Positions 1 to 26,015 of a stretch of DNA of 40,525 nt are shown here, piece by piece (position 1 is the first letter of the stretch; each line of letters starts with the position of its first letter). A program made the position numbers and the translations under genes. Source of the stretch: a virus; the UHGV virus genome UHGV-0146833; one strand, 5' to 3'. The notes under the pieces are model-generated. The model was given only the letters and a program-made list of their open reading frames with translations, ran no database searches and was not told where the DNA came from.

Positions 1-180
1 TGAATTATGTGCTAATCTTTAGAACAAAGTCAAGGAACAAATTTTAGAGTTCCGATATTGTGTTTTTGTCTATTGTCCGTTATTGTGTTCTGTTAGTTTG
101 TGACTAAGTTAACGCGTTATTAGTTATCTTATTCTCAAATTGTGTTACGATAATCCGAGCGGATAATCAGGAGAGGAAAG
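1..180. promoter_or_regulatory. telN upstream / telomere-proximal regulatory region: ATTGTGTT direct repeats (57-64, 82-89, 139-146; variant 71-78), 10-bp palindrome TAACGCGTTA (110-119), tandem GATAATC (149-155, 162-168) ahead of the telN RBS
   Basis: Repeats read directly from sequence. First 17 nt (TGAATTATGTGCTAATC) loosely resemble the TelN-binding flank of the N15 telRL site as I recall it. No complete telomere palindrome is present in the window. Confidence 0.3.
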
Positions 181-2076
181 ATGAGCAAAGTAAAAATCGG
201 TGAATTAATAAACTCACTTGTTAGCGATGTTGAGTCAATAGATAACTCTGACCGTCCTCAAGGGGAAAAAACAAAAAAAATAAAAGCTGTTGCATTAAAA
301 TTTAAAAATGCATTATTTAATGACAAGCGAAAGTTTAGGGGGAAAGGATTAGAAAAAAGAATTACAGCCAACACATTCAATGCCTATATGAGCAGGGCCA
401 GAAAACGGTTTGATGATAAACTTCATCATAGCTTTGAAAAAAATATACATCGCCTATCTGAAAAGTATCCTTTATATAATGAGGAGCTATTGTCATGGCT
501 TTCTCTACCTGCTGCCGATATTCGCCAGAGAATGTCAGCTTTACAGGCAAAATTAAAATTAATTCTCCCTTTATCAGAAGATTTATCTAATATCAGAATT
601 GGTGATAACAAAAGTCATAATAAGTTATTAAAATTATCAAATAAATATAAAGAGTGGCAATTCGCCATTTCTGATTTAACTAGCGATAACTGGAAAGATA
701 AGCGCGATTATTTATATAAATTACTACAGCAAGGATCTGCCTTACTTGAGGAGTTGAATCAGCTAAAAGTTAACCATGAGATTCTCTATCATCTTCAACT
801 AAGCCCTGCCGAACGCGCATCTATCCAGCAACGATGGGCAGACGTTCTGCACAATAAGAAACGTAACGTGGTGGTCATTGATTACCCTAAATATATGCAA
901 GCTATTTACGATATTATAAATAGCCCTGCTACATTAAATAATCTAAACACTCGTTCAGGTATGGCTCCTTTGGCATTTGCACTTGCTGCATTGTCAGGAA
1001 GACGAATGATTGAGATTATGTATCAAGGTACATTCACTGTTTCTGGTAAGTATACCGTTGATTTTTTAGGCCAAGCTAAAAAAAGAACTTCTGATGATAT
1101 AACCAGAAAAATATATACATTATGCGAAGCGAAAACATTTGTTTATTTAATAAATGTACTTCGCTCATGCCCAGCAGCATCTGATTTTGATGATGTCGTT
1201 AAAGGTTATGGAGATAACGACACACGCTCTGAAAACGGACGTATTAATGCCATATTAGCAAAGGCTTTTAACCCGTGGGTTAAATCATTTTTCAAAGATG
1301 ACCGCCGTGTTTATAAAGATAGTCGTGCTATTTATGCCCGTATTGCGTATGAAATGTTTTTCCGCGTAGATCCTCGTTGGAAAAATGTAGATGAGGATGT
1401 TTTCTTTATGGAAATTTTAGGACATGACGATGAAAACACTCAATTACACTATAAGCAATTCAAGCTGGCCAACTTCTCAAAGACATGGAGGCCAAATACT
1501 GGAAACGAAAATACCAGGCTGGAAGCATTGCAGCAGCTTGATGACGAAATGCCTGGATTCGCCAGAGGAGATGCCGGGGTTCGTCTGCATAACACAGTTA
1601 AGCAGCTGGTAGAGCAGGACCCCTCTATAAAAATCACGAACAGCACTCTAAGAGCATTCAAATTTAGCCCAACAATGATTAGTCGATACCTGGAATTTGC
1701 TGCTGATGCTCTGGGGCAATTTGTTGGCGAAAATGGACAATGGCAGCTGAAAATAGATACTCCAGAAATCGTTATGCCTGACGAAGAAGAGCTGGAAGCA
1801 ATACCTGAACAGGTGGATGAATTATCAGAGGATGACGATCTGGATGACGACGAAATTGAGATAGAGGAAGAGATAGAGGAAGAGAGCATAGAAGAACAGC
1901 AACCGCCCGCGCCTTCTTCACCTGTATCTAAGCCGGTATTTAAGCCTGTGAGAAATATTGGTGATGGCTCATACGTTGTTGAGTTTCATTATAATGGCCA
2001 GAATTATGCTTGGTCCGGCAGTGCAAACAGCCCTATGTCAGCAATGCAGTTAGCATGGCTGACATATTTCGGATAA
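181..2076 (+). CDS. telN: Protelomerase (telomere resolvase) TelN
   Basis: 631 aa, same length as N15 TelN; near-colinear similarity to remembered N15 TelN over the whole protein (MSKVKIGELIN..., RDYLYKL, GRINAILAKAFNPWVKSFF, acidic C-terminal tract). RBS AGGAGAGGAAAG upstream. Confidence 0.92.
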   Translation: MSKVKIGELINSLVSDVESIDNSDRPQGEKTKKIKAVALKFKNALFNDKRKFRGKGLEKRITANTFNAYMSRARKRFDDKLHHSFEKNIHRLSEKYPLYNEELLSWLSLPAADIRQRMSALQAKLKLILPLSEDLSNIRIGDNKSHNKLLKLSNKYKEWQFAISDLTSDNWKDKRDYLYKLLQQGSALLEELNQLKVNHEILYHLQLSPAERASIQQRWADVLHNKKRNVVVIDYPKYMQAIYDIINSPATLNNLNTRSGMAPLAFALAALSGRRMIEIMYQGTFTVSGKYTVDFLGQAKKRTSDDITRKIYTLCEAKTFVYLINVLRSCPAASDFDDVVKGYGDNDTRSENGRINAILAKAFNPWVKSFFKDDRRVYKDSRAIYARIAYEMFFRVDPRWKNVDEDVFFMEILGHDDENTQLHYKQFKLANFSKTWRPNTGNENTRLEALQQLDDEMPGFARGDAGVRLHNTVKQLVEQDPSIKITNSTLRAFKFSPTMISRYLEFAADALGQFVGENGQWQLKIDTPEIVMPDEEELEAIPEQVDELSEDDDLDDDEIEIEEEIEEESIEEQQPPAPSSPVSKPVFKPVRNIGDGSYVVEFHYNGQNYAWSGSANSPMSAMQLAWLTYFG

Positions 2077-2087
2077 ATCATACGGTA

Positions 2088-2119
2088 AAGGCACCGAATT
2101 ATCGGTGCCTTGTTGTGTG
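2088..2119 (+). terminator. Hairpin (AAGGCACCGA-ATTA-TCGGTGCCTT) followed by GTTGTGTG after telN; weak U-tract
   Basis: 10-bp perfect stem 12 nt after the telN stop; convergent with the minus-strand operon ending at 2249. Confidence 0.4.
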
Positions 2120-2248
2120 GCCTACCTCGCCTGCCCCCTGCAAAGGGCAGAAGTAACGGAGGAAACGCGGCTGCAACCACAGACATCACCGCCCCGACTG
2201 CGAGGCTTCCCTTCTCGAAGAAGGGCATAAATTCGGGCTGGCCAACCC

Positions 2249-3031
2249 CTATTTATTGGTGATTTCTGCTGGCTTTAGCTGCGCGGACAACTGCTCAAGT
2301 TTTTGAACTGCCAGTTCAAAATGCGCGGGTAACGCCTTTTCCAGATCAGAGTTGATATCGGTGATGGGCAAATCACCACACGACATACTCCGCCTACCAC
2401 CACGAACAACATCACGCAACAACTCTCGTTCATACGTGCGCATGTTCCCCAATGCCGACTCAGCAGCCGTCAAAATCCGGCGCAGTTCTGCCGTAATTGC
2501 TGGCAAATCATCAACAGTTATGGGGTTCGGGGATGGATTACGACACGCCCGACGCAAAGCCAACCATACACCGCTAATCCAGGCATTTCGGTATTGAAAA
2601 CTTTGTGCAATATCGTTAATCAGCCCTCGCAGATACTCCTTCTGCCTCCAGTTCAACGGCTCCGCTGCTCGCATTGGCTCTGGCTCGACGTAAACGTACT
2701 CTCCATTTTTGCGAATAGAGGGCAAGACTTCGTTCGTTACCCATTTGCGAAACCGCCAAGCTGTTGTGCCTTGCTTCACCGCGTCACGGCAGCGGAGGAT
2801 CAGGGTGTATAGACCTGACTCTGAAATAATATTTAGCTTTTGCTCTCCGCCAGGGGTGTAACTTAAAGTTACACCCTTTTCATCCTCATCCAGAGACATT
2901 AGCGCCTTCCGGGAGTTAACGAGTCTTAAAGCATCACATACATCCTTAGCCACAAACCACGGCTCACCGTTAATCATCACTACACGAATCTGATGCTCTT
3001 CCTGAAACGAAAATACAGCTAACGCGCTCAT
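2249..3031 (-). CDS. Bro-N / KilA-N domain antirepressor-like protein (AntC-like position)
   Basis: N-terminal motif FQEEHQIRVVMINGEPWFVAKDVCDAL is typical of the Bro-N family; last gene of a three-gene coupled operon next to telN. Confidence 0.75.
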   Translation of the reverse strand: MSALAVFSFQEEHQIRVVMINGEPWFVAKDVCDALRLVNSRKALMSLDEDEKGVTLSYTPGGEQKLNIISESGLYTLILRCRDAVKQGTTAWRFRKWVTNEVLPSIRKNGEYVYVEPEPMRAAEPLNWRQKEYLRGLINDIAQSFQYRNAWISGVWLALRRACRNPSPNPITVDDLPAITAELRRILTAAESALGNMRTYERELLRDVVRGGRRSMSCGDLPITDINSDLEKALPAHFELAVQKLEQLSAQLKPAEITNK

Positions 3032-3261
3032 TTAGCCTCCTTATTGTGCTGCAATTGCGACGAGAGAGATGCTGAATACCCCTGTGCTTCGTGTGTTAGC
3101 TCACACGCAATTTGAAGGAGCTTCCCGGCTTCTGATAGATAAATCGACGCCTCACAGCTGGATACTGTCCGATGGGCTGATGACACGAGCGCATAGACCT
3201 GAGCCAGACGTTCATCCAACGACTCCAGCAGGCCAACAGTGTTCATTTTTACCTGATTCAT
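3028..3261 (-). CDS. Hypothetical 77-aa protein, middle gene of the antirepressor operon
   Basis: ORF in track; 4-bp overlaps with the ORFs on both sides (translational coupling). Confidence 0.55.
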   Translation of the reverse strand: MNQVKMNTVGLLESLDERLAQVYALVSSAHRTVSSCEASIYLSEAGKLLQIACELTHEAQGYSASLSSQLQHNKEAK

Positions 3262-3422
3262 GCAGCCACCTCGCGCACCGGAATACGGGCAGACAATACC
3301 AGGACAAACCGGCTGGCGAACTGGCGACGAGCTTCCCGTTCAGATGACGCGATGGTGGAAAGATGATGGATATGTGACTTTTTGTCTGTGCGAACGACTG
3401 CCGCAAATTTGAATTTGAACAT
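3258..3422 (-). CDS. Icd-like small protein (54 aa), first gene of the antirepressor operon
   Basis: Not in ORF track (<60 aa). Hand translation: MFKFKFAAVVRTDKKSHIHHLSTIASSEREARRQFASRFVLVLSARIPVREVAA. GGAG RBS 8 nt upstream; stop overlaps next start (ATGA). The ASSER-AR-FVL-RIPV pattern resembles Icd-like cell-division inhibitors as I recall them. Confidence 0.5.
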   Translation of the reverse strand: MFKFKFAAVVRTDKKSHIHHLSTIASSEREARRQFASRFVLVLSARIPVREVAA

Positions 3423-3423
3423 G

Positions 3424-3719
3424 GTATGCACTCCGTTTAATTGGTCGTGCTACCACCAGAGTTCTCACGCTCTTGAATGGTGGTAGCCCAAGCGGGGGTG
3501 AGAATACCGGCAAACGAAGAAACCGGCCTGACCGAAGTCAGCCCCGCCTGAGCCACCATAAATCGGATATGCGCAGGTATATACACACAAAAAAACACGC
3601 TGGCGCGTGTTGTGCGCTTCGTTTATCCGGGTTCTCACGCCCGGCTGCGGGATTTACCGCAGCGGAGTAACTTTACCGTCAAAACGACGCACACGTCAAT
3701 AATTTGCAAAGACATTTTA
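3424..3719 (-). promoter_or_regulatory. Structured non-coding leader upstream of the antirepressor operon; candidate promoter plus c4/CA-like regulatory RNA
   Basis: ~300 bp without a credible ORF; several inverted repeats (GCTACCACCA...TGGTGGTAGC; CTGCGG...CCGCAG; ACACGC...GCGTGT) and a repeated GTTCTCACGC motif. RNA assignment is by analogy with P1/N15 immunity regions, not shown. Confidence 0.25.
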
Positions 3720-3739
3720 CCCCGTGACCAGTCACGGGG
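3720..3739. repeat. Palindrome CCCCGTGAC-CA-GTCACGGGG (family CGTGAC-YR-GTCACG, copy 1 of 3)
   Basis: Read directly; 9+2+9 inverted repeat followed by a T-run on the plus strand. Confidence 0.7.
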
Positions 3740-3800
3740 ACAGGTGTTTTTATAGTTTGCTTGAACGAGTGATCAGAAGTTGATCGTTAATCAAAGGCCA

Positions 3801-4112
3801 TTACTGATTAAGAGATTGGAAATACCTAACTAACTTACCGGCATCATCACATTTTTCTTTATCTTCGTCCTTAACATAGCCGCGACAAAAGGCTGAATAA
3901 AATTTTGCATTTTCAGAAGCAAAAGCAGCCGTCGAAAGGAGCAACTCTTTGCATGACTCTTTTGATGCAGCATCGGGATTATTTTTACATGCAAGCTCCG
4001 CTGATGAGTTAATAACAGAAATGCTATCTTCCTGGGCATAAACCGCAGCAGAAAAGGCAAAACATAAAACAAAAATAAAACTCTTCACTTTATCTCCTGT
4101 AACAGTCATCAC
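3801..4112 (-). CDS. Small secreted Cys-containing protein (signal peptide, ~80-aa mature part)
   Basis: N-terminal hydrophobic stretch ending ...AVYA-QE typical of a Sec signal peptide; four Cys in mature part; AT-rich codon usage. Confidence 0.6.
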   Translation of the reverse strand: MMTVTGDKVKSFIFVLCFAFSAAVYAQEDSISVINSSAELACKNNPDAASKESCKELLLSTAAFASENAKFYSAFCRGYVKDEDKEKCDDAGKLVRYFQSLNQ

Positions 4113-4115
4113 AAT

Positions 4116-4523
4116 TCAATCAACTTCTTTAGCATCAGCCATACGATTCAACCAGGAATCAACAATCGGTTGCTCATCTACAGAATGTTTACTAGGTATA
4201 ACTCGCCAGCTATCTTGCGAAAATCTGCCGTACTTACGCGGGAATAGGCCTTTCTTTATCTCCCGCCATGTACTAGGAAAACCATCCACAAAAGTACCAA
4301 TTAACAGGAGAGGGACAAAAATCAGAGCTACAAACCATCGTGCAAGAAAGTGTTCAACAACAACATTTTCACCGTTGTAGTAATACGCATACGCATCCAA
4401 TATGCGAATTTTCCTTACCTTAAAAATAGCCTTATGCTGAGAACGACTTAACTTGATACGAATGTATCCCTTATCCAAAGGGGATTCGTATTTGTATGAT
4501 TGAACAGCCATTTTTAACCCCAC
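4116..4523 (-). CDS. Hypothetical single-pass membrane protein (135 aa)
   Basis: Central hydrophobic helix WFVALIFVPLLLIGTFV; stop abuts next start; AT-rich. Confidence 0.6.
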   Translation of the reverse strand: MGLKMAVQSYKYESPLDKGYIRIKLSRSQHKAIFKVRKIRILDAYAYYYNGENVVVEHFLARWFVALIFVPLLLIGTFVDGFPSTWREIKKGLFPRKYGRFSQDSWRVIPSKHSVDEQPIVDSWLNRMADAKEVD

Positions 4524-4843
4524 TCACCATCAGCAAACAAAGCGTTATACTCTGATAATGGTAAATGATGCCCCTCAATTGCCAGATTAAGCCCCAAATG
4601 GGTAGATGGGTGCTCCTTATCTGGCTCCTCCTCCCACAATTCAGAAGCTAAAGAAGCTAAACGCTCAGCCGCTTTCACGTAGTTTTCGGTCCTGAACCAA
4701 CCCAAATTAATCCCACCATCAGTAATCGCCCAGGCTACTTTCTTCTCTTCTTCCTGAATAGCCTTAATGCGTCGATCGCACTCATCCCGGCAGAACTTCA
4801 GCTGACGGTAATCAAGTGTGTCCAAAAATGCAGTAGTAGACAT
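4514..4843 (-). CDS. Hypothetical cytoplasmic protein (109 aa)
   Basis: Strong RBS GGGGAG upstream of ATG; overlaps downstream gene start; AT-rich. Confidence 0.6.
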   Translation of the reverse strand: MSTTAFLDTLDYRQLKFCRDECDRRIKAIQEEEKKVAWAITDGGINLGWFRTENYVKAAERLASLASELWEEEPDKEHPSTHLGLNLAIEGHHLPLSEYNALFADGEWG

Positions 4844-4847
4844 ATTT

Positions 4848-5039
4848 TTACTCCCCGTTCACCGAAAAATCACGATAGAAACGTTTCCACATACGATAAG
4901 TCTGCGCGAGTTGTTCACCACGAAACATCGCCTTCCTGGCCTTCATGTTTTCCTTGTGAGACTTTCGATCTATGAACCAAAACCATTGCTGGAACACACA
5001 AAGCAAGAGACACAAAGATAATATCCACTGATTACCCAT
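4848..5039 (-). CDS. Hypothetical small membrane protein (63 aa), start overlapping the repA stop
   Basis: Internal ATG of track ORF 4848..5156; N-terminal hydrophobic helix (WILSLCLLLCVFQQWFWF); 4 nt before next gene's start. Confidence 0.4.
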   Translation of the reverse strand: MGNQWILSLCLLLCVFQQWFWFIDRKSHKENMKARKAMFRGEQLAQTYRMWKRFYRDFSVNGE

Positions 5040-8000
5040 AGAAAGCGCCCTGCTCTTCGTAGCTGCATGAGCTATTCCCGGTAATGTATTCTCGTAACCG
5101 CCGCAGTTCATTGCTAGACAAGTGATCCATGAACTCTGTGAGGTACAGAGATGCAAACGTCATAGCTATGCTGGCTGATGACCATGATGACATAGTGGCC
5201 AGCTCCTCACCGGAAAGCGCACTCATCGCCCAGGACTCAGGAACAGCCACAGGCAATACAGCCAAAGCCTGTGATATAGCTGAACGAGGGGGATCCTGTT
5301 CCTCCGTGTTTGTGGATCGCGTTTCACCATTCATATATATATTTAATGACAAATCGCGATCCACTTCGGTCGTTGATTTTTCTGCCTTGCGAGCTTTCAA
5401 CGTCATACCGTCCTCCTGACGTTGCGCAAGAATATCAAGCATAAATGCTACAGACTCAGGCTCAACAAAACGCAATGTCGGGCGCTTATCGCCATCTCTG
5501 CCGCGACGTTTTCCTGTTTTTAGGCCGAGAGAGTCGCAGATGTTTTTAAACAGTGCTTCCGGCACTTTAGGCTTCCCTTTTGGTGTCATAAAACCACCAA
5601 TGCGCAGAACGTTATTCAACAGGTCACGGCGTTCTGCTGTCATGAGATTATCTCGAGCGAACTTAAGGCGTTCCTGCGTCGCTTCGCCGGTCATAGTTTC
5701 AGGGTCGATACCGCAGTCGATAAAGTACTGCCGGAGAGTTGCTGATTTAAGCGCATAGAATCCGCGCATGCCGACCTCAACAGCTGGGGTGGCTTTTACC
5801 TTGTAGTCGATTATTCCCGGAAATTTCGCTTTGAATACATCATCAGCCTGCTCGCGTGTCATCGCGGTCACCACAAAATATTGCCACTGTCCGGTCTGGC
5901 GATATGCGTATGTAAAATTGATAGCCGCTTCTTCACGGTCATAACGACGGGCAGTGACTTCATCAAGCAGCATCGTTTCATAACGGCGAATTTTGTCTCG
6001 AGCGCCATCGAAATAGAATTTCAGTGTGCCTTCTTCAACCGGTAATTTCAGTTCGTTCTCAATATCCCAGCGGACCAGTTTTGCCTGTTCTTCAAGCGTT
6101 AGCGCACGTTTTTTTAGTAGTTCTTCACGCTCTGATTCTTCTGGTGTCTCTGTATTGAGGTGCAGATCCAGCGTCTGTTCCCACACAATATCCCGCGCTT
6201 CTTTGCGCAGCTCTTTACCAAAATCGTTCGCGGCATAATCGGTAGCTAATGGTGATACCTTATAACCGTCGCTGTGCATGATGCAGATCATGTTGCTGGC
6301 GTAGTCGTTACGCGCAGACGCTTCAATTGCGGCTGCTTTAATTTTCATCCTGGTAAAGTCGGTATTGGCTACCCCCATTGATATACGGTCGCCATCGAAA
6401 ATGACATCCGTCAGTTCACCGTTCATGCCTGCGGTAGCAAGTAATGCCTGGGCGAATGCACGTTCTATTTTTTGCGGATCAGTCTCGCGTTTTGCACGGG
6501 CTTTATCAAAGCCAATAATAAATTCTTTTGCTGTACGGTCGCGGCGTAGCATTTGCACTGCGTCGCTGGGCACAACTTCACCGCAGAACATGCCGAAATG
6601 ACGGTCAAAATGTTTTTTCTCAAATGACACCCCGGAGGAAATCGACGGGCTGTAGATCAGTCCATCGTATTTCATCACCATTACTTTTGGCTGGCTGGTA
6701 AAGGCATCGACTTCTTCATCCTGTTTGCTTTTCTGGTTTACGCACAGAAATTTCTTGCCAGGGAAATGCATTCTCAGGGTGGCGGTCACATCTTCTGCAA
6801 AGGTGGAGCTGTCGGTGGCCAACATAATTTTTTCGCCATCCGATACAGCTTTCACCACCTCGGTCATGATGCGATCTTTTTCTGTATAAAAAACCCGGAT
6901 TGGCTCACCTGTTTCGCGGTTGCGAACATCAACAGGTAATTCAATTACGTGGATCTGCAGCCATGCCGGTAAACCTAGTTCTTCACGGCGTTTCATAGCC
7001 AGTTCAGCCAGGTCAACCAGCAGATCGTTCGCATCAGCATCCACCATGATTGGGTGTTGTTCCGTTCTGGCCAGCGCGTCAATTAACGTATTGAATACAG
7101 CCACCGGGTTTTCCATAGCCCGACCGGAAAGAACGGCACGTAGCCCTTGTGTTGCCTCGTCAAAGCCAAAATAGTCGTGCTGGCGCATCAACGGTTGCCA
7201 GCAGTTTTTAACAATCGAGTTTATGCAGATGGTCAGTTTACTGGCGTATGGAGCCATTTCCTGATAGCCAGGGTCCTGATAGTGCAGGATATCGGCTTTT
7301 ACACCTTTTCCTTCTGTCATCATTTCCCACAGGCCACCAATAAGGGAGACACGGTGAGCAACAGAGATACCACGTTCTGAGCTATGCATTAACGGTCGTA
7401 ACAATCCAGTAGATTTGCCGGAACCCATACCAGCACGGACGATGACTATCCCCTGTAGTGATTGCACGTACTTCAGGACATCATCGGTCATTACCGAAGT
7501 TTCAAAACGCTTATAGGTGATATGTTGAGGGCGTTTATTGGGATCAGTTATGCGTTCGCTGAAAGAGCGCGGAGCCTGGGCAATACGGCACTTTTTATTC
7601 AGGCGACGGGCAATGTGGTCTTTTACCGTAGCGCGATAGATATTTTCCAGTCCCATTTCACGCAGAACGATGCAGAACATGTTAAATAAATCTGACGGAC
7701 TGTTAGGAACCGGACAGGTTAGCATGCCAATATCCACCGCTCTCAGCAGCTCTTTGGCAAAAGTACGACGGTTATCCCGCTTAATTGTCTTCAGGCGGTT
7801 GAGCGTCAGAGATAGCAAATCAGTGCCGGTTTTCAGGCGGTTTGCTGTTGCGAATAGTTGACGTGCTGTTTCACGAAGTCCACGTAGTTTGTGCAGGTCG
7901 TTGAAGTCACTGCACTCCATTTGCGGATCGTCTTCAAAAGTTGGGTAGACGCAGCGGACATCGTTGAATTTAGATAAGATTTCATAGCCAGTCCGCAGGC

Positions 8001-9027
8001 CGGTATTCCCTTTTCCTTCTGTGGCTGATTTCCGGTCATTATCCAGTGCGCAGGTGATTTTTGCCGCTGGGTACATGTTTACCAGTTGTTCCACAACATG
8101 AACCATGTTGTTAGCGGATACAGCGACAACCACAGCGTCAAAGCGTTTATCTTTTTTCGTGGCAAGCCAGATGGATGCACCAGTAGCAAAACCTTCTGTA
8201 ACAGCGATGTTTTGCGCCCCTTTCAGCTCACCGATAACAAAGCAGGCACCGACGAAATCGCCGCTGGTTACTGCGGTGGTCTGGTATTTCCCACCTTGTT
8301 TGTCGATTCGCTGCCAACCCACAATACGACCATCGTAACGACCGTCCAGATGAGCCAGAGGGATAGCCATATATGTGGTTGGCCCCCGGCTCCATTTCGC
8401 ACTGTCGTGACTGGTCACGCGACGCACATCACACGAATTAAAAACGTCACGAATACCTTTTTTAATCGCATATGGCCATGAGCCGTCTTCTGCAGGAGCA
8501 TGTTCCCACGCGCTGTGGAATGCCAGCCATCCCAGCAAACGTTCATGGTCCATTTGGTTGTTTTTCAGGTCATTAATTCGTTTTTGTTCTTCACGGCGAC
8601 GACGTGCTTCGGCCTGACGTTCTATTCTTGCCCGTTCTTCTTCCGGTTGTGCGACCACGGTCGCATTATTCCGTTGTTGCTCACGGCGATATTCAGAAAA
8701 CAGGAAGGAGAAACCGCTCCATGAGCCAGCATCGCTGCCTTTATGGACGAAGTTAATGAACGGGTAATCAATCCCTTTGCTGTGTTCCAGCCTGGAGTAA
8801 ATTTCTACGCGTCCTTTCAGGCTCTTTTCGAGAGCTTCTGGAGATGTTTTATTGTATGAAGAGTAACGCTCAACCCCCCCACGAGGGTTGAGTTGGATGT
8901 TGTCGGAACAGGCAGGCCAGTTGATACCAGCCATTTGTGCCAGCTCGGTTAGTTCATCCCGTGCTGCTTCAATTAGCGAGAACGGATCGCTGCCAAAGCG
9001 ATCCGCATAGAAATCGTTTAATGTCAT
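5032..9027 (-). CDS. repA: Replication protein RepA (primase-helicase multidomain, N15 RepA-like)
   Basis: 1331 aa (N15 RepA is about 1324 aa by recollection); Walker A-like GMGSGKST in the C-terminal half; position between the telN side and cB as in N15. Confidence 0.85.
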   Translation of the reverse strand: MTLNDFYADRFGSDPFSLIEAARDELTELAQMAGINWPACSDNIQLNPRGGVERYSSYNKTSPEALEKSLKGRVEIYSRLEHSKGIDYPFINFVHKGSDAGSWSGFSFLFSEYRREQQRNNATVVAQPEEERARIERQAEARRRREEQKRINDLKNNQMDHERLLGWLAFHSAWEHAPAEDGSWPYAIKKGIRDVFNSCDVRRVTSHDSAKWSRGPTTYMAIPLAHLDGRYDGRIVGWQRIDKQGGKYQTTAVTSGDFVGACFVIGELKGAQNIAVTEGFATGASIWLATKKDKRFDAVVVAVSANNMVHVVEQLVNMYPAAKITCALDNDRKSATEGKGNTGLRTGYEILSKFNDVRCVYPTFEDDPQMECSDFNDLHKLRGLRETARQLFATANRLKTGTDLLSLTLNRLKTIKRDNRRTFAKELLRAVDIGMLTCPVPNSPSDLFNMFCIVLREMGLENIYRATVKDHIARRLNKKCRIAQAPRSFSERITDPNKRPQHITYKRFETSVMTDDVLKYVQSLQGIVIVRAGMGSGKSTGLLRPLMHSSERGISVAHRVSLIGGLWEMMTEGKGVKADILHYQDPGYQEMAPYASKLTICINSIVKNCWQPLMRQHDYFGFDEATQGLRAVLSGRAMENPVAVFNTLIDALARTEQHPIMVDADANDLLVDLAELAMKRREELGLPAWLQIHVIELPVDVRNRETGEPIRVFYTEKDRIMTEVVKAVSDGEKIMLATDSSTFAEDVTATLRMHFPGKKFLCVNQKSKQDEEVDAFTSQPKVMVMKYDGLIYSPSISSGVSFEKKHFDRHFGMFCGEVVPSDAVQMLRRDRTAKEFIIGFDKARAKRETDPQKIERAFAQALLATAGMNGELTDVIFDGDRISMGVANTDFTRMKIKAAAIEASARNDYASNMICIMHSDGYKVSPLATDYAANDFGKELRKEARDIVWEQTLDLHLNTETPEESEREELLKKRALTLEEQAKLVRWDIENELKLPVEEGTLKFYFDGARDKIRRYETMLLDEVTARRYDREEAAINFTYAYRQTGQWQYFVVTAMTREQADDVFKAKFPGIIDYKVKATPAVEVGMRGFYALKSATLRQYFIDCGIDPETMTGEATQERLKFARDNLMTAERRDLLNNVLRIGGFMTPKGKPKVPEALFKNICDSLGLKTGKRRGRDGDKRPTLRFVEPESVAFMLDILAQRQEDGMTLKARKAEKSTTEVDRDLSLNIYMNGETRSTNTEEQDPPRSAISQALAVLPVAVPESWAMSALSGEELATMSSWSSASIAMTFASLYLTEFMDHLSSNELRRLREYITGNSSCSYEEQGAFYG
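8406..8419. repeat. Palindrome CGTGAC-TG-GTCACG inside repA (copy 2 of 3)
   Basis: Read directly. Confidence 0.7.
8650..8665. repeat. Palindrome TGCGACC-AC-GGTCGCA inside repA (centromere-like family, copy 1 of 6)
   Basis: Read directly; resembles the F-plasmid sopC inverted repeat (TGGGACCACGGTCCCA as I recall). Confidence 0.7.
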
Positions 9028-9078
9028 TTTTTAGCCATTCCATGCGAATTATGTTTTTTCGGGTTGAAAAAATCCGCA

Positions 9079-9140
9079 GGAGCAGCCACAATAAACGCAT
9101 CTTGAATTGACGGAATCCGTCGCGTTGTTGTGGCTGCTTC
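9079..9140. promoter_or_regulatory. Long-range inverted repeat (GGAGCAGCCACAA ... TTGTGGCTGCTTCC) upstream of repA; candidate repA promoter/operator or regulatory RNA structure
   Basis: 13-bp arms separated by ~35 bp containing a nested AACGC...GCGTT repeat; lies 50-110 bp upstream of the repA start. Confidence 0.3.
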
Positions 9141-9150
9141 CTGAAAAGGA

Positions 9151-9178
9151 CCCGAGTTTGCCGACTCGGGTTTTTTTT
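9151..9178 (+). terminator. Rho-independent terminator-like hairpin (CCCGAGT-TTGCC-GACTCGGG) plus T8, between cB and repA
   Basis: 8-bp GC-rich stem followed by TTTTTTTT on the plus strand, antisense to cB/repA; the minus-strand reading has a weaker U-tract. Confidence 0.5.
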
Positions 9179-9272
9179 CGTCTTTTTTCTGCTGCTGTAA
9201 CCTGAGTCAACCCACAGAACATATGCCCTGCATTAAACCAGATTTACAGCAAACAATAAACCCCGTATTAAG

Positions 9273-9869
9273 TCATCTACCCTCAACCATGAATGATTTG
9301 ATCGTTCCGACTATTTGGTGAACAAATTCAAGATCGCTTTTCCTGAAGATGGCGCGTTGTGAATTTGTTCCGTCCAAATAGTAATTTTCATCATCAAAAC
9401 GGGCCAGGCGCTGGATGGTGATATTTCCTGCAGTATCACGAACCAGAACATCCTCGCCGGGAACCAGTTCCAGCGCAGAATCGACCAGGAGAAAATCGCC
9501 TGGCTGATAGTTTCCCTGCGTCAGATTGCTGATAGTTAACGCATAAACAGTATTGCGCTGGCTGATGAATGGCAGGAATCGCTCAGTATTTGGAACCTGT
9601 CCTGGCTTCCACTCTTCATCAGGTCCACTTTCAGTTGTGCCAATAACAGGAATGCGATCAGGGTCATATTCTGTCCCATACAGCACCCAATGCACTGGCT
9701 TTCGTAAGCACTTAGCCAGGGCAATACCTATCTCCAGTGACGGCATTACGTCGCCACGTTCTAAGTTTTGGACGCCTGCAATAGAGATATCGACAGCCTC
9801 AGCAACTTCTCGCAACGTCAGCTTCATCTCTAAACGGCGTGCTTTCAGTCGTTCGCCTCGTGTTTTCAT
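9273..9869 (-). CDS. cB: Prophage repressor CB (CI-like: N-terminal HTH, C-terminal S24 peptidase-like domain)
   Basis: 198 aa; HTH segment LTLREVAEAVDISIAGVQNLERG; C-terminal LexA/CI-like fold; divergent from cro with operators between. Confidence 0.85.
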   Translation of the reverse strand: MKTRGERLKARRLEMKLTLREVAEAVDISIAGVQNLERGDVMPSLEIGIALAKCLRKPVHWVLYGTEYDPDRIPVIGTTESGPDEEWKPGQVPNTERFLPFISQRNTVYALTISNLTQGNYQPGDFLLVDSALELVPGEDVLVRDTAGNITIQRLARFDDENYYLDGTNSQRAIFRKSDLEFVHQIVGTIKSFMVEGR

Positions 9870-9891
9870 AGCTTAATCATAAATGATCTTC

Positions 9892-9933
9892 TTATAGCTG
9901 GCTATAAAATTTATTTATTATAGCTAGCTTTAA
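9892..9933. promoter_or_regulatory. Repressor operators in the cB-cro intergenic region: TTATAGC-TG-GCTATAA (9892-9907) and TTATAGC-TA-GCTTTAA (9918-9933); TATAAT at 9949-9954
   Basis: Two 16-bp palindromic sites read directly between divergent cB and cro. Confidence 0.7.
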
Positions 9934-9960
9934 ATGTGATTTATTGCTTATAATAACCGC

Positions 9961-10182
9961 ATGAAACCAGAAGAACTTATTCGCCACTTTGGCAGTGTAG
10001 AAAAAGCAGCGGCTGGGGTAGGTGTAACACCCGGTGCTGTTTACCAATGGTTAACCGCTGGAGAGATTCCTTCATTGCGGCAAAGTGATATTGAAGTTCG
10101 TACTGCTTACAAGCTGAAGAGTGACTTTACAACTCGGCGGGTAAAGCAGTCGATTAAGGAGAGCCGTAAGCGTGGAGCTTGA
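9961..10182 (+). CDS. cro: Cro-like HTH regulator
   Basis: 73 aa, HTH GVGVTPGAVYQWLTAGEIP; divergent from repressor. Confidence 0.8.
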   Translation: MKPEELIRHFGSVEKAAAGVGVTPGAVYQWLTAGEIPSLRQSDIEVRTAYKLKSDFTTRRVKQSIKESRKRGA

Positions 10183-10882
10183 GTATATACGCAGCTGCGT
10201 CTCTACGGCATTGGCTGATGTTCATTATCGCCAGCGTGGCATTCTGGAGGTCCAGCTTGAGCAGATGCGTCTCGGTAGATCAGGACGGTTTAACAATAAA
10301 CCAGTCCGGTTAATCAGTGTGGGGGATGATAACTCATACGAAGTGTCCGTTCCTGCTGAGCCGGTTAGATTCCACCAGGGGAAAACATTTAAACAATCAT
10401 CAATGTTGCTCACTGATATTGATTTTCAGAGCGCCAGCTGGCGCAGGGCTATTGGTCAGTTGAATAACGAGGAATCAGCCTGGCTTTATTATTGCTACGG
10501 ATGCAAGCCTGATTACAACAATGATGTGATTGTTTGTCAGTGGTTATGGCTTGATTTTCTGGTTGCTCATTCGGGGGGCGGCTTTAAAAAAATGAAGGCC
10601 TCCACGAAAAAAGCCATGCGGAAATTGATTTATTACGCGGCACAGCAGGTTAAATCAGAACTTACGTGTGCTGAGGCAGTTGATGAGAGAGAACAGGACA
10701 GGCATCTGAGTTTTCTACTGAATATATCTATTGATAGCTGGAGACAAGATTATAAAGAACGCTGGCTTTTAATTAAGTCGCGATGTCTGAGCTTAAATCG
10801 AACTGCATTATTAAATGCGGCGGAGAAGCGCAGTGAAATCATCAAACGCCATCGGGCAGGAAGTGCCATTCTGCCTTTGTAA
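10172..10882 (+). CDS. Hypothetical 236-aa protein; candidate late-gene antiterminator (Q-like) by position after cro
   Basis: GTG start with AAGGAG RBS, overlaps cro end; Cys cluster YYCYGC...C. Function inferred from N15 gene order only. Confidence 0.55.
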   Translation: MELEYIRSCVSTALADVHYRQRGILEVQLEQMRLGRSGRFNNKPVRLISVGDDNSYEVSVPAEPVRFHQGKTFKQSSMLLTDIDFQSASWRRAIGQLNNEESAWLYYCYGCKPDYNNDVIVCQWLWLDFLVAHSGGGFKKMKASTKKAMRKLIYYAAQQVKSELTCAEAVDEREQDRHLSFLLNISIDSWRQDYKERWLLIKSRCLSLNRTALLNAAEKRSEIIKRHRAGSAILPL

Positions 10883-10889
10883 ACAAGTT

Positions 10890-11135
10890 ATGTTCAGGAA
10901 ACCGTCGAAGCCAGAATTAAGATATTCGGGGGTAAGAAATGAATATGTTATCTGGTGTCCAACTTGTGGTTACAGGACACGACCAGATAGTAATAAGCAG
11001 TCTGTAATTGCCGATTGGTATTTATCAAATCAGCCAGGTAATAAGCATATAGAAAATCTTTGGATTAAGCGTTACTTGGAAATCAGCGAGGGTGCGACCG
11101 TGGTCGCACAAGAAAATGAAAATAACGCCATTTAA
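10890..11135 (+). CDS. Hypothetical small protein with CPTCG motif (81 aa)
   Basis: Internal ATG of track ORF 10815..11135, chosen because it follows the stop of the upstream gene. Confidence 0.45.
   Translation: MFRKPSKPELRYSGVRNEYVIWCPTCGYRTRPDSNKQSVIADWYLSNQPGNKHIENLWIKRYLEISEGATVVAQENENNAI
11093..11108. repeat. Palindrome TGCGACC-GT-GGTCGCA (centromere-like family, copy 2 of 6)
   Basis: Read directly; sits ~8 bp upstream of the next ATG. Confidence 0.7.
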
Positions 11136-11319
11136 GCAGGGGCCGATGACGCATGATGAAGCAGAGCGTCTTTCAGATACTTATCGGCGGCGTGGTAAGA
11201 AAGTTCTGGTTGTTCGTTCTGATTTTTTAGGTGATGGATATTGCGTTTATGTTCATTTACCTGAATCAGAAAGAGCGCCAAAACCATCCAGAACATATCA
11301 ACAGAAAATTTGGGTATAG
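11116..11319 (+). CDS. Hypothetical protein (67 aa)
   Basis: ATG downstream of palindrome; ORF in track (extended form 11092..11319). Confidence 0.45.
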   Translation: MKITPFKQGPMTHDEAERLSDTYRRRGKKVLVVRSDFLGDGYCVYVHLPESERAPKPSRTYQQKIWV

Positions 11320-11342
11320 ATAAACGTTGAGGAGAATTATTC

Positions 11343-11942
11343 GTGACTAATCAGATTATTTACGACAGGAAACGGTCTGATGTAATGATCGACCTTGAAA
11401 CAATGGGTACTAACACATGTGCTCCAATTGTTTCTATCGGGGCAGTGTTTTTTTCTCCAGAAAGTGAGGAATTAGGTCCTACTTTTTATGTGCCAGTGAA
11501 TCTCAGAAGCTCGATGTTGAATGGTGGTGTCGCCGATGGTGATACCATTTTATGGTGGTTGAAACAGAGCAAGGAAGCCAGTGCCGCAATTTGTACTAAT
11601 GATGCCCTTGATATTAAGGATGCACTTTTTGAATTATCACACTTTATTACTTGCCATGCATGTAATTTAAAAAAATTGAAAGTATGGGGAAATGGAGCAA
11701 CATTCGACAATGTAATTTTACGCGGTGCTTATGAGCGCGTTGGCTTAGCCTGTCCGTGGGAATATTTTAATGATCAGGATGTTCGAACAATCGTTAATCT
11801 TGGTCAGTTTATTGGTTTCAATCCTAAAAAAGATATGCCATTTGATGGCGAACGACACAATGCCCTGGCTGATGCTATTCATCAGGCTAAGTATGTATCC
11901 GCAATTTTCTCCCGTCTCATAAAAGGGAAAGGAGAATCGTAA
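11343..11942 (+). CDS. 3'-5' exonuclease, DEDDh (DnaQ-like) family
   Basis: Exo I motif MIDLETMG near N-terminus and Exo III-like HNALADA near C-terminus; GAGGAG RBS. Confidence 0.7.
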   Translation: MTNQIIYDRKRSDVMIDLETMGTNTCAPIVSIGAVFFSPESEELGPTFYVPVNLRSSMLNGGVADGDTILWWLKQSKEASAAICTNDALDIKDALFELSHFITCHACNLKKLKVWGNGATFDNVILRGAYERVGLACPWEYFNDQDVRTIVNLGQFIGFNPKKDMPFDGERHNALADAIHQAKYVSAIFSRLIKGKGES

Positions 11943-12361
11943 TGGCAAAAGTTTTTACACCAGAACAGCGTGAAGAACTGAAGAAACAAATTGTGGAACT
12001 CGTGCGCCTGAATGGGCGAGGAACGGTTAGGCAACTGGCAGATGAAATTAGTATTAGCCGATGTGCTGTTAATCGTTTATCCAGAGAGCTTGCCACCAGT
12101 GGTGATTTGTATATCTCTGGCTCCGGGATATTTCTGTCTGCACAAGCACGCAAGGACTGGCAAAAAGCCCGTAAAAAACTATCAAGAGTAAAGCCGAAGA
12201 CATCGGTAGTGGTTGATCCAGACCTTATCTGGTCATTACCTGACGGAGAAATACGTCGTTACGACAGGCGCTTGAACATGATTTGTCACGATTGCCGGAA
12301 AAGTGAAGTTATGCAGCGTGTGCTGGCTTTTTATCAGGGAAATTTTCAGGAGGTGGCGTAG
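11942..12361 (+). CDS. Hypothetical protein with winged-helix-like segment (139 aa)
   Basis: ATG overlaps upstream stop; segment TVRQLADEISISRCAVNRLSREL resembles an HTH. Confidence 0.55.
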   Translation: MAKVFTPEQREELKKQIVELVRLNGRGTVRQLADEISISRCAVNRLSRELATSGDLYISGSGIFLSAQARKDWQKARKKLSRVKPKTSVVVDPDLIWSLPDGEIRRYDRRLNMICHDCRKSEVMQRVLAFYQGNFQEVA

Positions 12362-12651
12362 TGAATATCGACACCACGATAACGATCGATACGGCCCTAA
12401 ATATCGGTCTGGCACTTCTCGGTTGGTTTTACATCATGTTCAGTGCGGGGAAGTGGGCGGCCTCTGTTTTTCTAAAGCAGTGGGGAAAGCACCGCAAACA
12501 GGAAAGACGCCAGAAAGTGTTAGAGGCGTTATATGACGCATTTGAACTTAGCCGCATTGAGCCAGGCACAACAGCCAAGATAGCGACAAAAGGTGACATG
12601 ATGATAGTGATGTTCCGACAGGAGAGAGCAGAGAAAGGGGAATCAGCATGA
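12361..12651 (+). CDS. Hypothetical small membrane protein (96 aa)
   Basis: GTG start overlapping upstream stop; N-terminal hydrophobic helix LNIGLALLGWFYIMF. Confidence 0.5.
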   Translation: MNIDTTITIDTALNIGLALLGWFYIMFSAGKWAASVFLKQWGKHRKQERRQKVLEALYDAFELSRIEPGTTAKIATKGDMMIVMFRQERAEKGESA

Positions 12652-13322
12652 AATTTTCCAAATTTTCTGAGTTGGTGAATCGTATTTTGTCCAACAACCA
12701 CAGCCATCGTCGCGATATGGATGTAACAATCGTTATTCATTCGCCTGGCAGCATTGGTTCAACACCTTCAGTTGAGGTTCAGTCAATTCACGCTGGTTTT
12801 GATTGGGATTCCGGGAAAGTGCTTATTTTCCCAGCACAGCCACTGACCACGCTAACACCAGAACAGATTACTGATATTACTGATAGTGTGCGCAAAGGTC
12901 AGTCTTGGCACGCATATCAGGAATACAAGAAGCATCAAGAGCAGTTGGAAAAATTGTCGATTGAACTGGATGCTGCAAAACAGCGCGTAGCAGAACTGGA
13001 GGCCAGTCGCGTGACGCTGGCGGAGGAGAACTCGTGGCTGAAGATGCTCATAGAAGATCATGCTGGTTGTACTGCTGTCTGCCCAAATTGCTCTCATGAA
13101 GAACCCAGTGAAACAGACGACATTGTTTGGTCTTACCGTTCACGGGAAACGCCAGCCACCGATGCTTTCCTGGCTGAAGTCCGGGCGCAGGGATTGGAGA
13201 TGTTTGCACAGAAATGTAACTCAAAATCCGAACAGTCGCTTGCATCTGATATACGCGATAACTGGAAACTACTCGGTGAGCATGCGACTGACTTTGCCGC
13301 AGAGCTTCGCAAAGGAGAGTGA
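12648..13322 (+). CDS. Hypothetical protein with coiled coil and CPNC zinc-ribbon-like motif (224 aa)
   Basis: ATGA overlap with upstream gene; coiled-coil segment QEQLEKLSIELDAAKQRVAELEASR; CxxC. Confidence 0.6.
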   Translation: MKFSKFSELVNRILSNNHSHRRDMDVTIVIHSPGSIGSTPSVEVQSIHAGFDWDSGKVLIFPAQPLTTLTPEQITDITDSVRKGQSWHAYQEYKKHQEQLEKLSIELDAAKQRVAELEASRVTLAEENSWLKMLIEDHAGCTAVCPNCSHEEPSETDDIVWSYRSRETPATDAFLAEVRAQGLEMFAQKCNSKSEQSLASDIRDNWKLLGEHATDFAAELRKGE

Positions 13323-13323
13323 T

Positions 13324-13818
13324 ATGACCACTATTACCAGAGAACAGGCTAAGAAAATTATTGAAGCAGCCGACGATGTTATTAGTGCGCTGGCCGGAAC
13401 TAACGAGGATGTTCACCCAGGTAGCGATAACATGCTACGTCTGTGGGATGACCTGAATGACCGTTACGCGCCGCCGGAAATTGTGCGGGAACTGGCACGA
13501 ATTGCACTGGCATCGCTGGAAGCAGAACCGGTGGCATGGCTGCATTCAGACAATGGCTTAGGTATTCCGGCAATAACCCGGAGTAAAAACATTGCTGACA
13601 GTTGGTTATCAAAGGGCTGGTATGTTCAGTCGCTATATGTAGCCCAGCCACTGCCGGTGGTGCCGGATGATAATCGTATTCAGTTTTCTGTTTCACTTCC
13701 TGCAGCGTTTGGTGGAGATAAATATTTTATTGATGGTGTATTTCAACCTTTGAGATATGAGCGTGACTGTGAAAAAGCGGTTGTGGCCGCTGGCGGTGTA
13801 GTTAATTGGGTTAAGTAA
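13324..13818 (+). CDS. Hypothetical protein (164 aa)
   Basis: ATG 1 nt after upstream stop; internal M of track ORF 13060..13818. Confidence 0.55.
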   Translation: MTTITREQAKKIIEAADDVISALAGTNEDVHPGSDNMLRLWDDLNDRYAPPEIVRELARIALASLEAEPVAWLHSDNGLGIPAITRSKNIADSWLSKGWYVQSLYVAQPLPVVPDDNRIQFSVSLPAAFGGDKYFIDGVFQPLRYERDCEKAVVAAGGVVNWVK

Positions 13819-13833
13819 TTTTCAGGAGGATTT

Positions 13834-14160
13834 ATGGCTCTGACACCGGCAGAACGGCAAAGGAGACGCAGGGAACGGTTGAAGAAGGAAGGCACATCAA
13901 GACGGGACTGGATTTTGGAGCCTGACGAGTTACGTATGTTGGGGGAAATTTGTGTATTGCGTAGACCAGGGCGAGTTCCATATTCGGAGAACGAAGTCAT
14001 CGGCCTTCTGATCAGGAAAAACTATAAGGAGTTGCAGAAGCAGCTATCTACTACTTGTCCGCGATGTGGTCAAAAAATGTCTGTTTCAGAATGCATTTTT
14101 GATGGCGAAGGCTCATGCCACCTTACAACCACGAGGCTGAAACTTGCGCTCAAAGCGTGA
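13834..14160 (+). CDS. Hypothetical Arg-rich protein with CPRCG motif (108 aa)
   Basis: AGGAGG RBS; basic N-terminus RQRRRRERLKK. Confidence 0.55.
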   Translation: MALTPAERQRRRRERLKKEGTSRRDWILEPDELRMLGEICVLRRPGRVPYSENEVIGLLIRKNYKELQKQLSTTCPRCGQKMSVSECIFDGEGSCHLTTTRLKLALKA

Positions 14161-14169
14161 CTGGTCACG
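14156..14169. repeat. Palindrome CGTGAC-TG-GTCACG (copy 3 of 3), overlapping the stop codon of the upstream gene
   Basis: Read directly. Confidence 0.7.
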
Positions 14170-14178
14170 GAGGGATAA

Positions 14179-14421
14179 ATGGATAAAAAGGCATTGCTTT
14201 TTGAAATGATACGAAAACGGAGCGAAAAGAGCTTTTCTGATGGTGGTGATGGGTTTGTTTTCGCTTCTATGCTTGCTTTTGATGTTGGGTTAAATAGCAG
14301 AATTGTTAAAAGGATGCTTGATTCTGCTGTCCGTACTGGACTTCTTGAGAAAGTTGATCGTGGCATAGGGAGAGAGCATAAGTATCGGGCCACACAGCAG
14401 TTTTTGCAGTTAATACATTGA
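14179..14421 (+). CDS. Hypothetical protein (80 aa), possible winged-helix fold
   Basis: ORF in track; GGAGGG RBS. Confidence 0.5.
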   Translation: MDKKALLFEMIRKRSEKSFSDGGDGFVFASMLAFDVGLNSRIVKRMLDSAVRTGLLEKVDRGIGREHKYRATQQFLQLIH

Positions 14422-14503
14422 AAATTGACCGTAAAGTTTGAGTTTTCCCCTGTAATTTTATACAGTATAAATAACCTTTTTTAGTTAAATGGTATGAGAT
14501 TTA

Positions 14504-14707
14504 ATGTCTGAAGCAGCCGTATCAACTCTTGAACAACTCGATTCAAATTTAAGAGATATTGACGCCGTTCTGGATCTGGTTAGCGTCACCCTGGCTTCTC
14601 CAGAAGCCAGCCTACATATTGGTGAGGTTTCACGGCTCATCAACATGTCGCGAGAGATTGCCCAGCATTGTCAGAAAACTATCGCTGTTGAGCGTTCACA
14701 TCATTGA
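14504..14707 (+). CDS. Hypothetical protein (67 aa)
   Basis: ORF in track; preceded by an AT-rich promoter-like gap. Confidence 0.4.
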   Translation: MSEAAVSTLEQLDSNLRDIDAVLDLVSVTLASPEASLHIGEVSRLINMSREIAQHCQKTIAVERSHH

Positions 14708-14749
14708 TGAACACCCCGCCCTTCAGGACGGGGTAGTAAAAGAGTCTAA

Positions 14750-15037
14750 TTAATAAACAGCGCGAATATTGATGGTTGCGCCGCAGGCATGAGCATATTT
14801 AGCCAAAGTTTTCATACTTGCCCCTAAAGGATTGCTTTCCAGGCGGCTGATGGCTGACGGGCGCAACCCCATTCGTTCAGCCAGAGCTGATTTCGTTAAA
14901 CCTGCTCTTTCCCTCATTTCGTATAACATTTCGACCATCTCCAGCTCTTTGTCGGCCTCTTCATATCCTTTGACGGCTTCTGGAGTGTTAAGAAGTTTTT
15001 CTTTTACTTCGTTAAACGGGATGCCTTTCGCTTTCAT
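14750..15037 (-). CDS. HTH (XRE-family) antitoxin, HigA-like
   Basis: 95 aa; HTH LTKSALAERMGLRPSAISRLE; start overlaps toxin stop (ATGA); toxin-first order typical of HigBA. Confidence 0.75.
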   Translation of the reverse strand: MKAKGIPFNEVKEKLLNTPEAVKGYEEADKELEMVEMLYEMRERAGLTKSALAERMGLRPSAISRLESNPLGASMKTLAKYAHACGATINIRAVY

Positions 15038-15348
15038 CAGTTCATCTCCTTCAGGCGAGTTCTGGCGATTTCGATAGCCTTCACCGGTGTTTTCTGTGTC
15101 TTTTTTACAAATGCATGCAATAGATAAATTTCGTTACCAGTCGCGTAGGCGTACAGCGTTCTTGCGATGTTTTTATCCCCTACTCGTAGTTCAAAAAGCC
15201 CTCCACCTATTACACGGCTATGGGGCATCTTCAGTTTGTTGCCTTCTTTCTCCAGTCGCTCAATTAATCTAGTCATGCGACCTCGCAAATCATCTGGTAG
15301 TTCAAGCAGTTCATTCAGTGCTGCAGGGTGGGTTATCACGTTAAACAT
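15037..15348 (-). CDS. RelE/ParE-superfamily toxin, HigB-like
   Basis: 103 aa from internal ATG with GGAGG RBS; fold-family assignment from overall pattern and the adjacent XRE antitoxin. Confidence 0.7.
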   Translation of the reverse strand: MFNVITHPAALNELLELPDDLRGRMTRLIERLEKEGNKLKMPHSRVIGGGLFELRVGDKNIARTLYAYATGNEIYLLHAFVKKTQKTPVKAIEIARTRLKEMN

Positions 15349-15407
15349 ATTATAGCCTCCATATCCATAAAATACACCAAAACAGGAAAACATAGCAAAT
15401 TAAAAAT

Positions 15408-15423
15408 TTCACCAAAAAGTGAA
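15408..15423. promoter_or_regulatory. Inverted repeat TTCAC-CAAAAA-GTGAA in the divergent promoter region between the toxin-antitoxin pair and gene 15496; candidate antitoxin operator
   Basis: Read directly; located ~60 bp upstream of the toxin start. Confidence 0.3.
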
Positions 15424-15495
15424 AAATAACACTGGATGTGTTCGTTTGGCAGAGTTACAGTTCGTGTCATTGAGGGGCAATAACCCACTAACCAT

Positions 15496-15735: not shown

Positions 15736-15748
15736 TTAGAGAGGCGTT

Positions 15749-15976: not shown

Positions 15977-15982
15977 AAACTG

Positions 15983-15998: not shown

Positions 15999-16018
15999 CA
16001 GCACAAAAACGAAAAAGC

Positions 16019-22334: not shown

Positions 22335-26015
<3,681 letters not shown>

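Follow-up and report, generated by a model that had tools for sequence, protein, structure and literature searches.

Does the first base of this DNA lie next to the physical end of a linear molecule, or does it mark a place where an assembly or a database record happened to be cut? The stretch in question is the virus genome UHGV-0146833, analysed over its full length of 40,525 nucleotides (nt) and hereafter called the window. An earlier note, made from the letters alone, had placed the start of telN, a protelomerase gene, at position 181, and had proposed that the contig edge lies at or within the telomere of a linear plasmid-prophage of the N15 type, in which TelN acts on a target site named telRL. 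TelN and telRL are in use as a tool for obtaining closed linear DNA. We have high confidence that the window represents a single contig from an Escherichia coli telomere phage of the N15-like type (Ravinvirus) in its linear-plasmid prophage form, that its first base is 12 nt away from the centre of symmetry of telRL and that the telN-side arm of tos takes up bases 1-180.

In N15, the telRL site of 56 base pairs (bp), which TelN requires, is composed of telO and the arm repeats L3 and R3, the outer TelN recognition elements; degenerate copies, L1/L2 and R1/R2, are found within the natural target of about 310 bp (PMC12624138). The 56-bp site is sufficient in vivo and in vitro (PMC3540006), and the end palindromes, once duplicated by replication, are resolved by TelN (PMC2847241). 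TelN bound to the hairpin also protects it against SbcCD, independently of catalysis (PMC12624138).

The window encodes a protelomerase with a tyrosine-recombinase-like catalytic core, and its gene begins where the earlier note had put it:

181 to 2076, plus strand: telN, protelomerase (telomere resolvase) of 631 amino acids, assigned from the open reading frame list, Pfam, the alignment with 2V6E and the catalytic residues.

The full-length open reading frame matches the Pfam domains TelK_N, TelK_muzzle, ResT-TelK_cat and TelK_stirrup, all far above their gathering scores. Residues 1-536 align with chain 2V6E of the crystal structure of TelK from phage phiKO2 (E=2.3e-295), and Arg275, Lys300 and the nucleophile Tyr424 (N15 numbering) are all present.

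The distance between telN and the centre of telO is almost fixed in this family and tells where base 1 should lie. N15 (NC_001901) has its 56-bp inverted repeat at 24775-24830, cut at 24802/3, and the telN ATG at 24995, 192 nt from the centre. In all eight relatives whose site is intact (N15, phiKO2, two Enterobacter and four E. coli elements), the centre is found 190-192 nt upstream of the ATG, and most of the 71 telN loci that we surveyed in IMG/VR and in GTDB genomes have a spacing of 188-192 nt. The window holds 180 nt upstream of the ATG and would thus be expected to start 12 nt from the centre. An exact look-up of the TelN protein returned contigs (L084-L087) that are 100% identical to window bases 1-5076 and extend further. 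These contigs read ...CCATTATACGC|GCGTATAATGG-TGAATTATGTGCTAATC..., where TGAATTATGTGCTAATC begins at window base 1, so that base 1, a T, is the first base outside the 22-bp perfect palindrome telO. The missing half-core is the 11 nt GCGTATAATGG, directly before window base 1. The telO core stands directly upstream of the equivalent of base 1 in all four of these contigs, and at the homologous distance in all relatives. The proposal that the edge falls within the tel site, with the hairpin core just upstream, was therefore correct, and the edge can now be given to the base. What remains of the site in the window is the following:

1 to 17, plus strand: the outer 17 nt, kept in the window, of the 28 nt that make up telRL on the telN side, with a 3-nt spacer (TGA) and a 14-nt arm repeat, assigned from contigs L084-L087 and by alignment to N15, phiKO2 and E. 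coli elements.
4 to 17, plus strand: arm repeat of the R3/L3 type, ATTATGTGCTAATC, matched by the N15 repeat ATTGTGTGCTGATA at 11 of 14 positions.

The likeness of the first 17 nt to the N15 flank, which the earlier note had called weak, is thus real, and the first bases TG are genuine lineage features, not end errors. Among 29 distinct family sequences, window positions 4-6, 8-13 and 15-16, within the arm repeat, are at least 95% conserved. Base 14 is an A in the window (GCTAATC) and a G in the family majority (GCTGAT, at least 80%); since all the 100%-identical contigs carry A14, it is a lineage trait rather than an error at the end of the contig. Alignment of bases 1-180 to the tel regions of N15 and phiKO2, which the earlier note had suggested as a check, shows agreement in the arm repeat, the TTGTGT copies and the spacing to the centre. 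The note had also held that a full palindromic tel site elsewhere would speak against its proposal: neither the telO core (centre TACGCGCGTA) nor any other tel site was found in the window, with up to three mismatches allowed in the core.

Assemblies of the family break close to this place: some end between a few and about 150 nt before the centre, and others run past it by roughly half a k-mer. The Shigella sonnei record CP061364.1 likewise has 180 nt upstream of telN. The 11-nt shortfall of the window, at the exact boundary of the palindrome, fits this pattern. Contigs may stop there because the 22-bp telO is the only stretch common to both telomeres and both strands, and because molecules folded back at a hairpin tip would amplify and assemble poorly.

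The hairpin end itself cannot be read from the window alone, and the strong evidence that points to it is indirect. In three Logan contigs of the identical lineage, each assembled from a different sequencing run, the sequence continues for exactly 15 nt beyond the centre and then stops. These 15 nt, TTCACCATTATACGC, are the telN-side arm in reverse complement and differ at -12 and -13 from the sopA-side arm TTTCCCATTATACGC of the junction form (TTTCCC...). The overhang of 15 nt equals (31-1)/2, as expected from a graph with k=31, which we take to be the Logan value, when the sequence folds back on itself. In Escherichia phage YDC107_1 (CP025712.1), 98% identical, at least 2,987 nt are duplicated in inverted orientation around the centre with 99.9% identity, the classic result of a long read passing through a hairpin. 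Seven loci of the 71-locus survey have long inverted duplications centred on telO, and 45 of the 71 contigs end near telN on the telomere side. Perfect palindromes to the last base make up 13 of the 16 contigs that overrun the centre, some with arms of 34-52 nt, compared with perfect arms of 12-27 nt at the intact junctions of the closest relatives (98-99%).

One record illustrates the other telomere. IMGVR_UViG_2791355284_000001 (loci L035 and L036) is 92,470 bp long and has telN 214 nt from both of its ends, in opposite orientation; it is a head-to-head inverted dimer of the whole genome, produced by read-through of the other, sopA-side hairpin. In assemblies, hairpin ends can appear as a stop at the palindrome edge, as a fold-back overhang of (k-1)/2, as an inverted duplication of a whole arm or as a falsely circular record. 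We also folded a reconstructed 90-nt terminal strand: it forms a perfect hairpin, but does so by construction and was given no weight.

Several points weigh against a hairpin next to base 1. The fold-back assignment of the Logan contigs depends on just two discriminating bases. The NCBI contig L084, of the identical lineage, contains sopB, sopA, an intact telRL and telN in one uninterrupted stretch, and junction-form molecules, or a join made by the assembler, therefore also exist in its lineage. A covalently closed end is suggested by relatives and by the fold-back contigs of the same lineage, not observed on this very molecule, and base 1 is not established as a true contig end, since no exact match to bases 3-60 was found in genome_contigs, nor to bases 5-36 in viral_contigs. 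Within the site, the arm repeat has A14 where the family has G, which may affect TelN binding; the roles that we propose below for the extra repeats would follow from what has been discussed for N15.

A rival reading takes the start of the window as an artefact of assembly or record cutting at the palindrome: in this host the element would exist mainly in junction form (circular, or virion and replicative DNA), and base 1 would not be near a physical end. The intact sopA-telRL-telN junction of L084, which is 100% identical to the window, is what such a reading predicts, and some related records, several of them in PLSDB, were deposited as circular with the same junction; moreover, the start coincides with the exact edge of a 22-bp perfect palindrome, where de Bruijn graphs would be expected to break whatever the topology. 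It does not sit well with the fold-back ends in three assemblies of the same lineage, with the long inverted duplications about the centre in relatives, with the number of contigs that end on the telomere side of telN, or with an intact telN. Junction reads are to be expected in any case, from spontaneously induced phage DNA, as known for N15. We regard the artefact as improbable. The earlier note had held that reads continuing smoothly into circular sequence upstream of position 1 would contradict a telomere there. Such continuation was literally found, in L084; as virion and replicative DNA carries an uncut telRL, this is the expected form and does not refute a hairpin end in the prophage.

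The arrangement of the rest of the window is that of the prophage. Bases 1-2100 match 31 plasmid records and are 98% identical to Escherichia phages YDC107_1 and PhiR46_1 (PV340565.1), and about 73% identical to N15. The element was found in 17 of 5,426 complete E. coli genomes, in all 17 on plasmid records and never on the chromosome (23 matching places). The whole window is collinear at 95-98% identity with PhiR46_1, deposited in prophage form: base 3 corresponds to base 25 of that record and base 40493 to its base 38574. With respect to the virion form of N15, the window is circularly permuted, with the N15 right arm first and the left arm after it (window 50-17309 is N15 24864-42453; window 22107-33728 is N15 365-11952). 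Between the two arms lies the cos site:

21598 to 21612 (approximate), plus strand: lambda-like cos junction GGGCGGAAGGCGCGCGGGTTTTCGCTATTTATGAAAATTTTCCGG, followed by the Nu1-like start.

Because cos is internal and the genome is permuted, the arrangement is that of a linear-plasmid prophage, cut at the tel site rather than at cos; a prophage genome permuted relative to the virion, with cos inside it, is indeed a defining feature of this type of element. A repA-like open reading frame at 5032-9027 is full length (1,331 amino acids). The sopAB genes lie beyond the right end of the window, but adjoin telRL in L084. The window ends (39520-40525) inside a J-like tail-tip gene, where identity to PhiR46_1, about 95% until then, falls to 78% over 39870-40493; this right end is probably a contig break induced by repeats or mosaicism. 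A further 6-8 kb or so, with the remainder of J, lom, stf, sopBA and the second telomere, are not in the window.

That the window is instead the remnant of a telomere phage, defective or integrated in a chromosome, with its tel region out of use, is hardly credible: the window does lack sopAB, the second telomere and the last part of the J-like gene and stops at 40,525 where relatives reach about 46.3 kb, but neither end has a chromosomal flank, collinearity at 95-98% with a complete phage record runs over the whole length, telN and the 1,331-residue repA are full length, each of the 23 matches in complete E. coli genomes is on a plasmid record, and the right break falls where the tail-tip identity drops, as would be typical of a repeat-induced contig break.

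For the naming of the two ends, the earlier note had called the telN-proximal telomere telR. This is probably a mislabel, as PV340565.1 has telL at telN and telR at the ParA end; Ravin's map of the N15 prophage presumably shows the same, with telL, telN and repA on the left. The naming is without consequence for the biology. For annotation, the linear prophage form means that the 40.5-kb contig should be described as an extrachromosomal linear phage-plasmid, not as an integrated prophage or a circular plasmid, and that the missing telomere core can be placed to the base.

The leader between base 1 and telN contains further elements, several of which the earlier note had listed; the direct repeats, the CGCG-centred 10-bp palindrome and the GATAATC elements are all present:

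51 to 64, plus strand: degenerate arm-repeat copy TCCGATATTGTGTT of repeat family D1, with an exact ATTGTGTT at 57-64; block 58-64 is conserved in the family.
76 to 89, plus strand: degenerate arm-repeat copy TCCGTTATTGTGTT of repeat family D1, with ATTGTGTT at 82-89; block 82-91 is conserved in the family.
110 to 119, no strand: 10-bp palindrome TAACGCGTTA, CGCG-centred, read from the sequence; no function assigned.
133 to 152, plus strand: fourth repeat copy TCTCAAATTGTGTT (133-146) plus ACGAT, 29-48 nt upstream of the telN ATG.
149 to 168, plus strand: two GATAATC copies (149-155 and 162-168) around the inverted repeat ATCCG-AG-CGGAT (153-164), just 5' of the ribosome-binding site.
169 to 176, plus strand: Shine-Dalgarno sequence of telN, AGGAGAGG, read from the sequence; its GG.G core is kept across the family.

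The motif ATTGTGTT occurs exactly three times on both strands of the whole window, at 57-64, 82-89 and 139-146, always on the plus strand. Chance would give 1.87 occurrences per whole window and about 0.004 on one strand of a 180-nt stretch, and the clustering of TTGTGT motifs upstream of telN is far above chance. A related ATTATGT is found at 4-10, and four of the ten window matches to the looser motif ATTRTGT fall within bases 4-145. Each exact copy falls within a member of the 14-nt direct-repeat family D1 (51-64, 76-89 and 133-146); these members are copies of the arm repeat and are conserved across the phage family. The arm repeat at 4-17 with these degenerate further copies is the arrangement that defines tos. 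From the centre to the ATG, the conserved blocks in the 29 sequences are the telO half, bases 4-16, GAAC at about 23-26, 58-64, 82-91, 131-152 and the ribosome-binding site. Outside the 56-bp site, 133-152 is the best-conserved non-coding block, with TTGTGTTAYGAT near-invariant in N15, phiKO2, Enterobacter and E. coli relatives. It is a candidate TelN-binding or promoter-proximal element.

The other two leader elements are less widely shared. The palindrome TAACGCGTTA is conserved only within the close E. coli clade, and by our own estimate about 0.2 palindromes of 10 bp are expected in 180 nt, so that it is not improbable by itself; neither is the pair of GATAATC 7-mers. That TAACGCGTTA might be a second, degenerate tel core was also considered, but the idea was dropped: the alignment of its half-site with telO is poor, the palindrome is restricted to the clade, and the inverted repeat that N15 has at this place is unrelated. 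At 153-164, a double change that preserves pairing, ATCAG-AG-CTGAT, is found in S. sonnei CP061364.1 and in the IMG/VR locus L020, and a variant that weakens pairing, GGAC for GGAT, in loci L024 and L029. These variants are anecdotal; they suggest that 149-168 may be a small regulatory hairpin or an operator. GAACA-type motifs (AGAACA, GGAACA and GAGAACA) were also seen on both sides of telO in the lineage of the window and in N15 (L084 2680-3000; window 22-45), the copy at about window 23-26 being conserved across the family.

How might the end be made and kept? On the model of N15 and phiKO2, a TelN dimer would bind the 56-bp site, composed of the 22-bp telO and the flanking 14-nt arm repeats, and would make staggered cuts around the centre through Tyr424. 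Each strand would then be resealed onto its complement, giving covalently closed hairpins. The telL-telL palindrome, duplicated by replication from the repA origin, would be resolved in the same way. The four TTGTGT blocks in the same orientation are putative TelN-binding sites, and the extra repeats at 51-64, 76-89 and 133-146 probably recruit more TelN, which would cap the end against SbcCD. The repeat next to the start of telN (133-152) may perhaps tune its expression, which would couple occupancy of the telomere to telN.

A more specific version of the last idea appears rather doubtful to us, namely that 133-152 (TTGTGTTACGAT, near-invariant from N15 to phiKO2) acts together with the inverted repeats of the clade at 110-119 and 153-164 as an autoregulatory switch, telN expression being set by TelN occupancy of the telomere arm, and that the asymmetric spacers of the lineages, together with the G-to-A change in the arm, reflect co-evolution of TelN with its target. 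Neither the switch nor the co-evolution was found described in the accessible literature.

Nothing in the window departs from the known biology of N15 and phiKO2, and near-identical elements have already been deposited, one of them with annotated tel sites. The closest are PhiR46_1, YDC107_1 and about 30 plasmid records from E. coli, Shigella and Escherichia albertii, 95-98.6% identical over telN and the leader. PhiR46_1 is the one with annotated telL and telR sites, and it is collinear over the whole window. From the group of PhiR46_1 and YDC107_1, the lineage of the window differs by its own spacer (TGA), by A14 in the arm repeat and by a few small modules; it has a full Bro-N antirepressor of 260 amino acids where PhiR46_1 has a remnant.

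N15, with its telRL/tos region and TelN, has a telO core, CCATTATACGCGCGTATAATGG, identical to that of the contigs of the window's lineage, the same spacing from centre to telN ATG (192 compared with 191 nt), a 14-nt arm repeat and additional TTGTGT repeats that align with those of the window. It also has the same gene order (telN, antirepressor operon, repA) and the same prophage permutation. However, the DNA is only about 73% identical, three of the 14 positions in the arm repeat differ, and window region 90-130 and the leader at 153-180 cannot be aligned in detail; N15 has GTGACG-N17-CGTCAC where the clade of the window has TAACGCGTTA and the GATAATC pair. The cos sequence differs too, the packaging module of the window being lambda-like.

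Phage phiKO2 (TelK, with a 50-bp telRL; structure 2V6E) shares the telO core and has its centre 190 nt from the ATG, whereas the C-terminal tail of TelK differs, the leader is only partly alignable and the host genus is Klebsiella. In Yersinia phage PY54, Tel acts on a site named pal (PMC3540006), which has the same central 10 nt, TACGCGCGTA, and likewise lies upstream of the resolvase gene, but it is a 42-bp perfect palindrome with different flanks, and PY54 DNA shows weak similarity to the telN of the window (about 66% over 287 nt).

A sigma-70 scan of bases 1-180 gave no convincing plus-strand promoter for telN, and none was assigned; the scan found ten sites in total, compared with 6.5±2.4 expected in shuffled sequences. 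The best match in the leader is on the minus strand (33..4), TTGACT-18-CATAAT, with 10 of 12 positions and boxes at 28-33 and 4-9, aimed from the arm repeat at the telomere tip. Such a promoter would make sense in junction-form DNA alone, as there it would be directed at sopA, and the match may be due to chance. Downstream of telN, a hairpin at 2088-2111 with a 10-bp stem, AAGGCACCGA-ATTA-TCGGTGCCTT, separates the convergent telN and Bro-N genes and is probably a bidirectional terminator; of this hairpin the scan gave only a shorter, minus-strand version.

Around cos, no match to a strict N15- or lambda-type cosN pattern was found in the window, and the lambda-like cos was recognised by reading the sequence around 21.6 kb. 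The region reads GGGCGGAAGGCG, followed by cosB-like sequence, and the Nu1-like small subunit of terminase starts at about 21790. The packaging and head module is lambda-like as well, and cosN differs from that of N15.

The full-length open reading frame of the Bro-N antirepressor (260 amino acids) lies at 2249-3031 on the minus strand and is also present in L084. Window bases 2137-2936 are without counterpart in PhiR46_1, which keeps just a 165-nt BRO remnant. Upstream of the antirepressor/icd-like operon, two Rfam matches score above the gathering threshold, C4 antisense RNA (82 bits) and isrK (64 bits), at 3476-3563 and 3590-3663, both on the minus strand; they look like the immA control RNA of the P1/N15 type.

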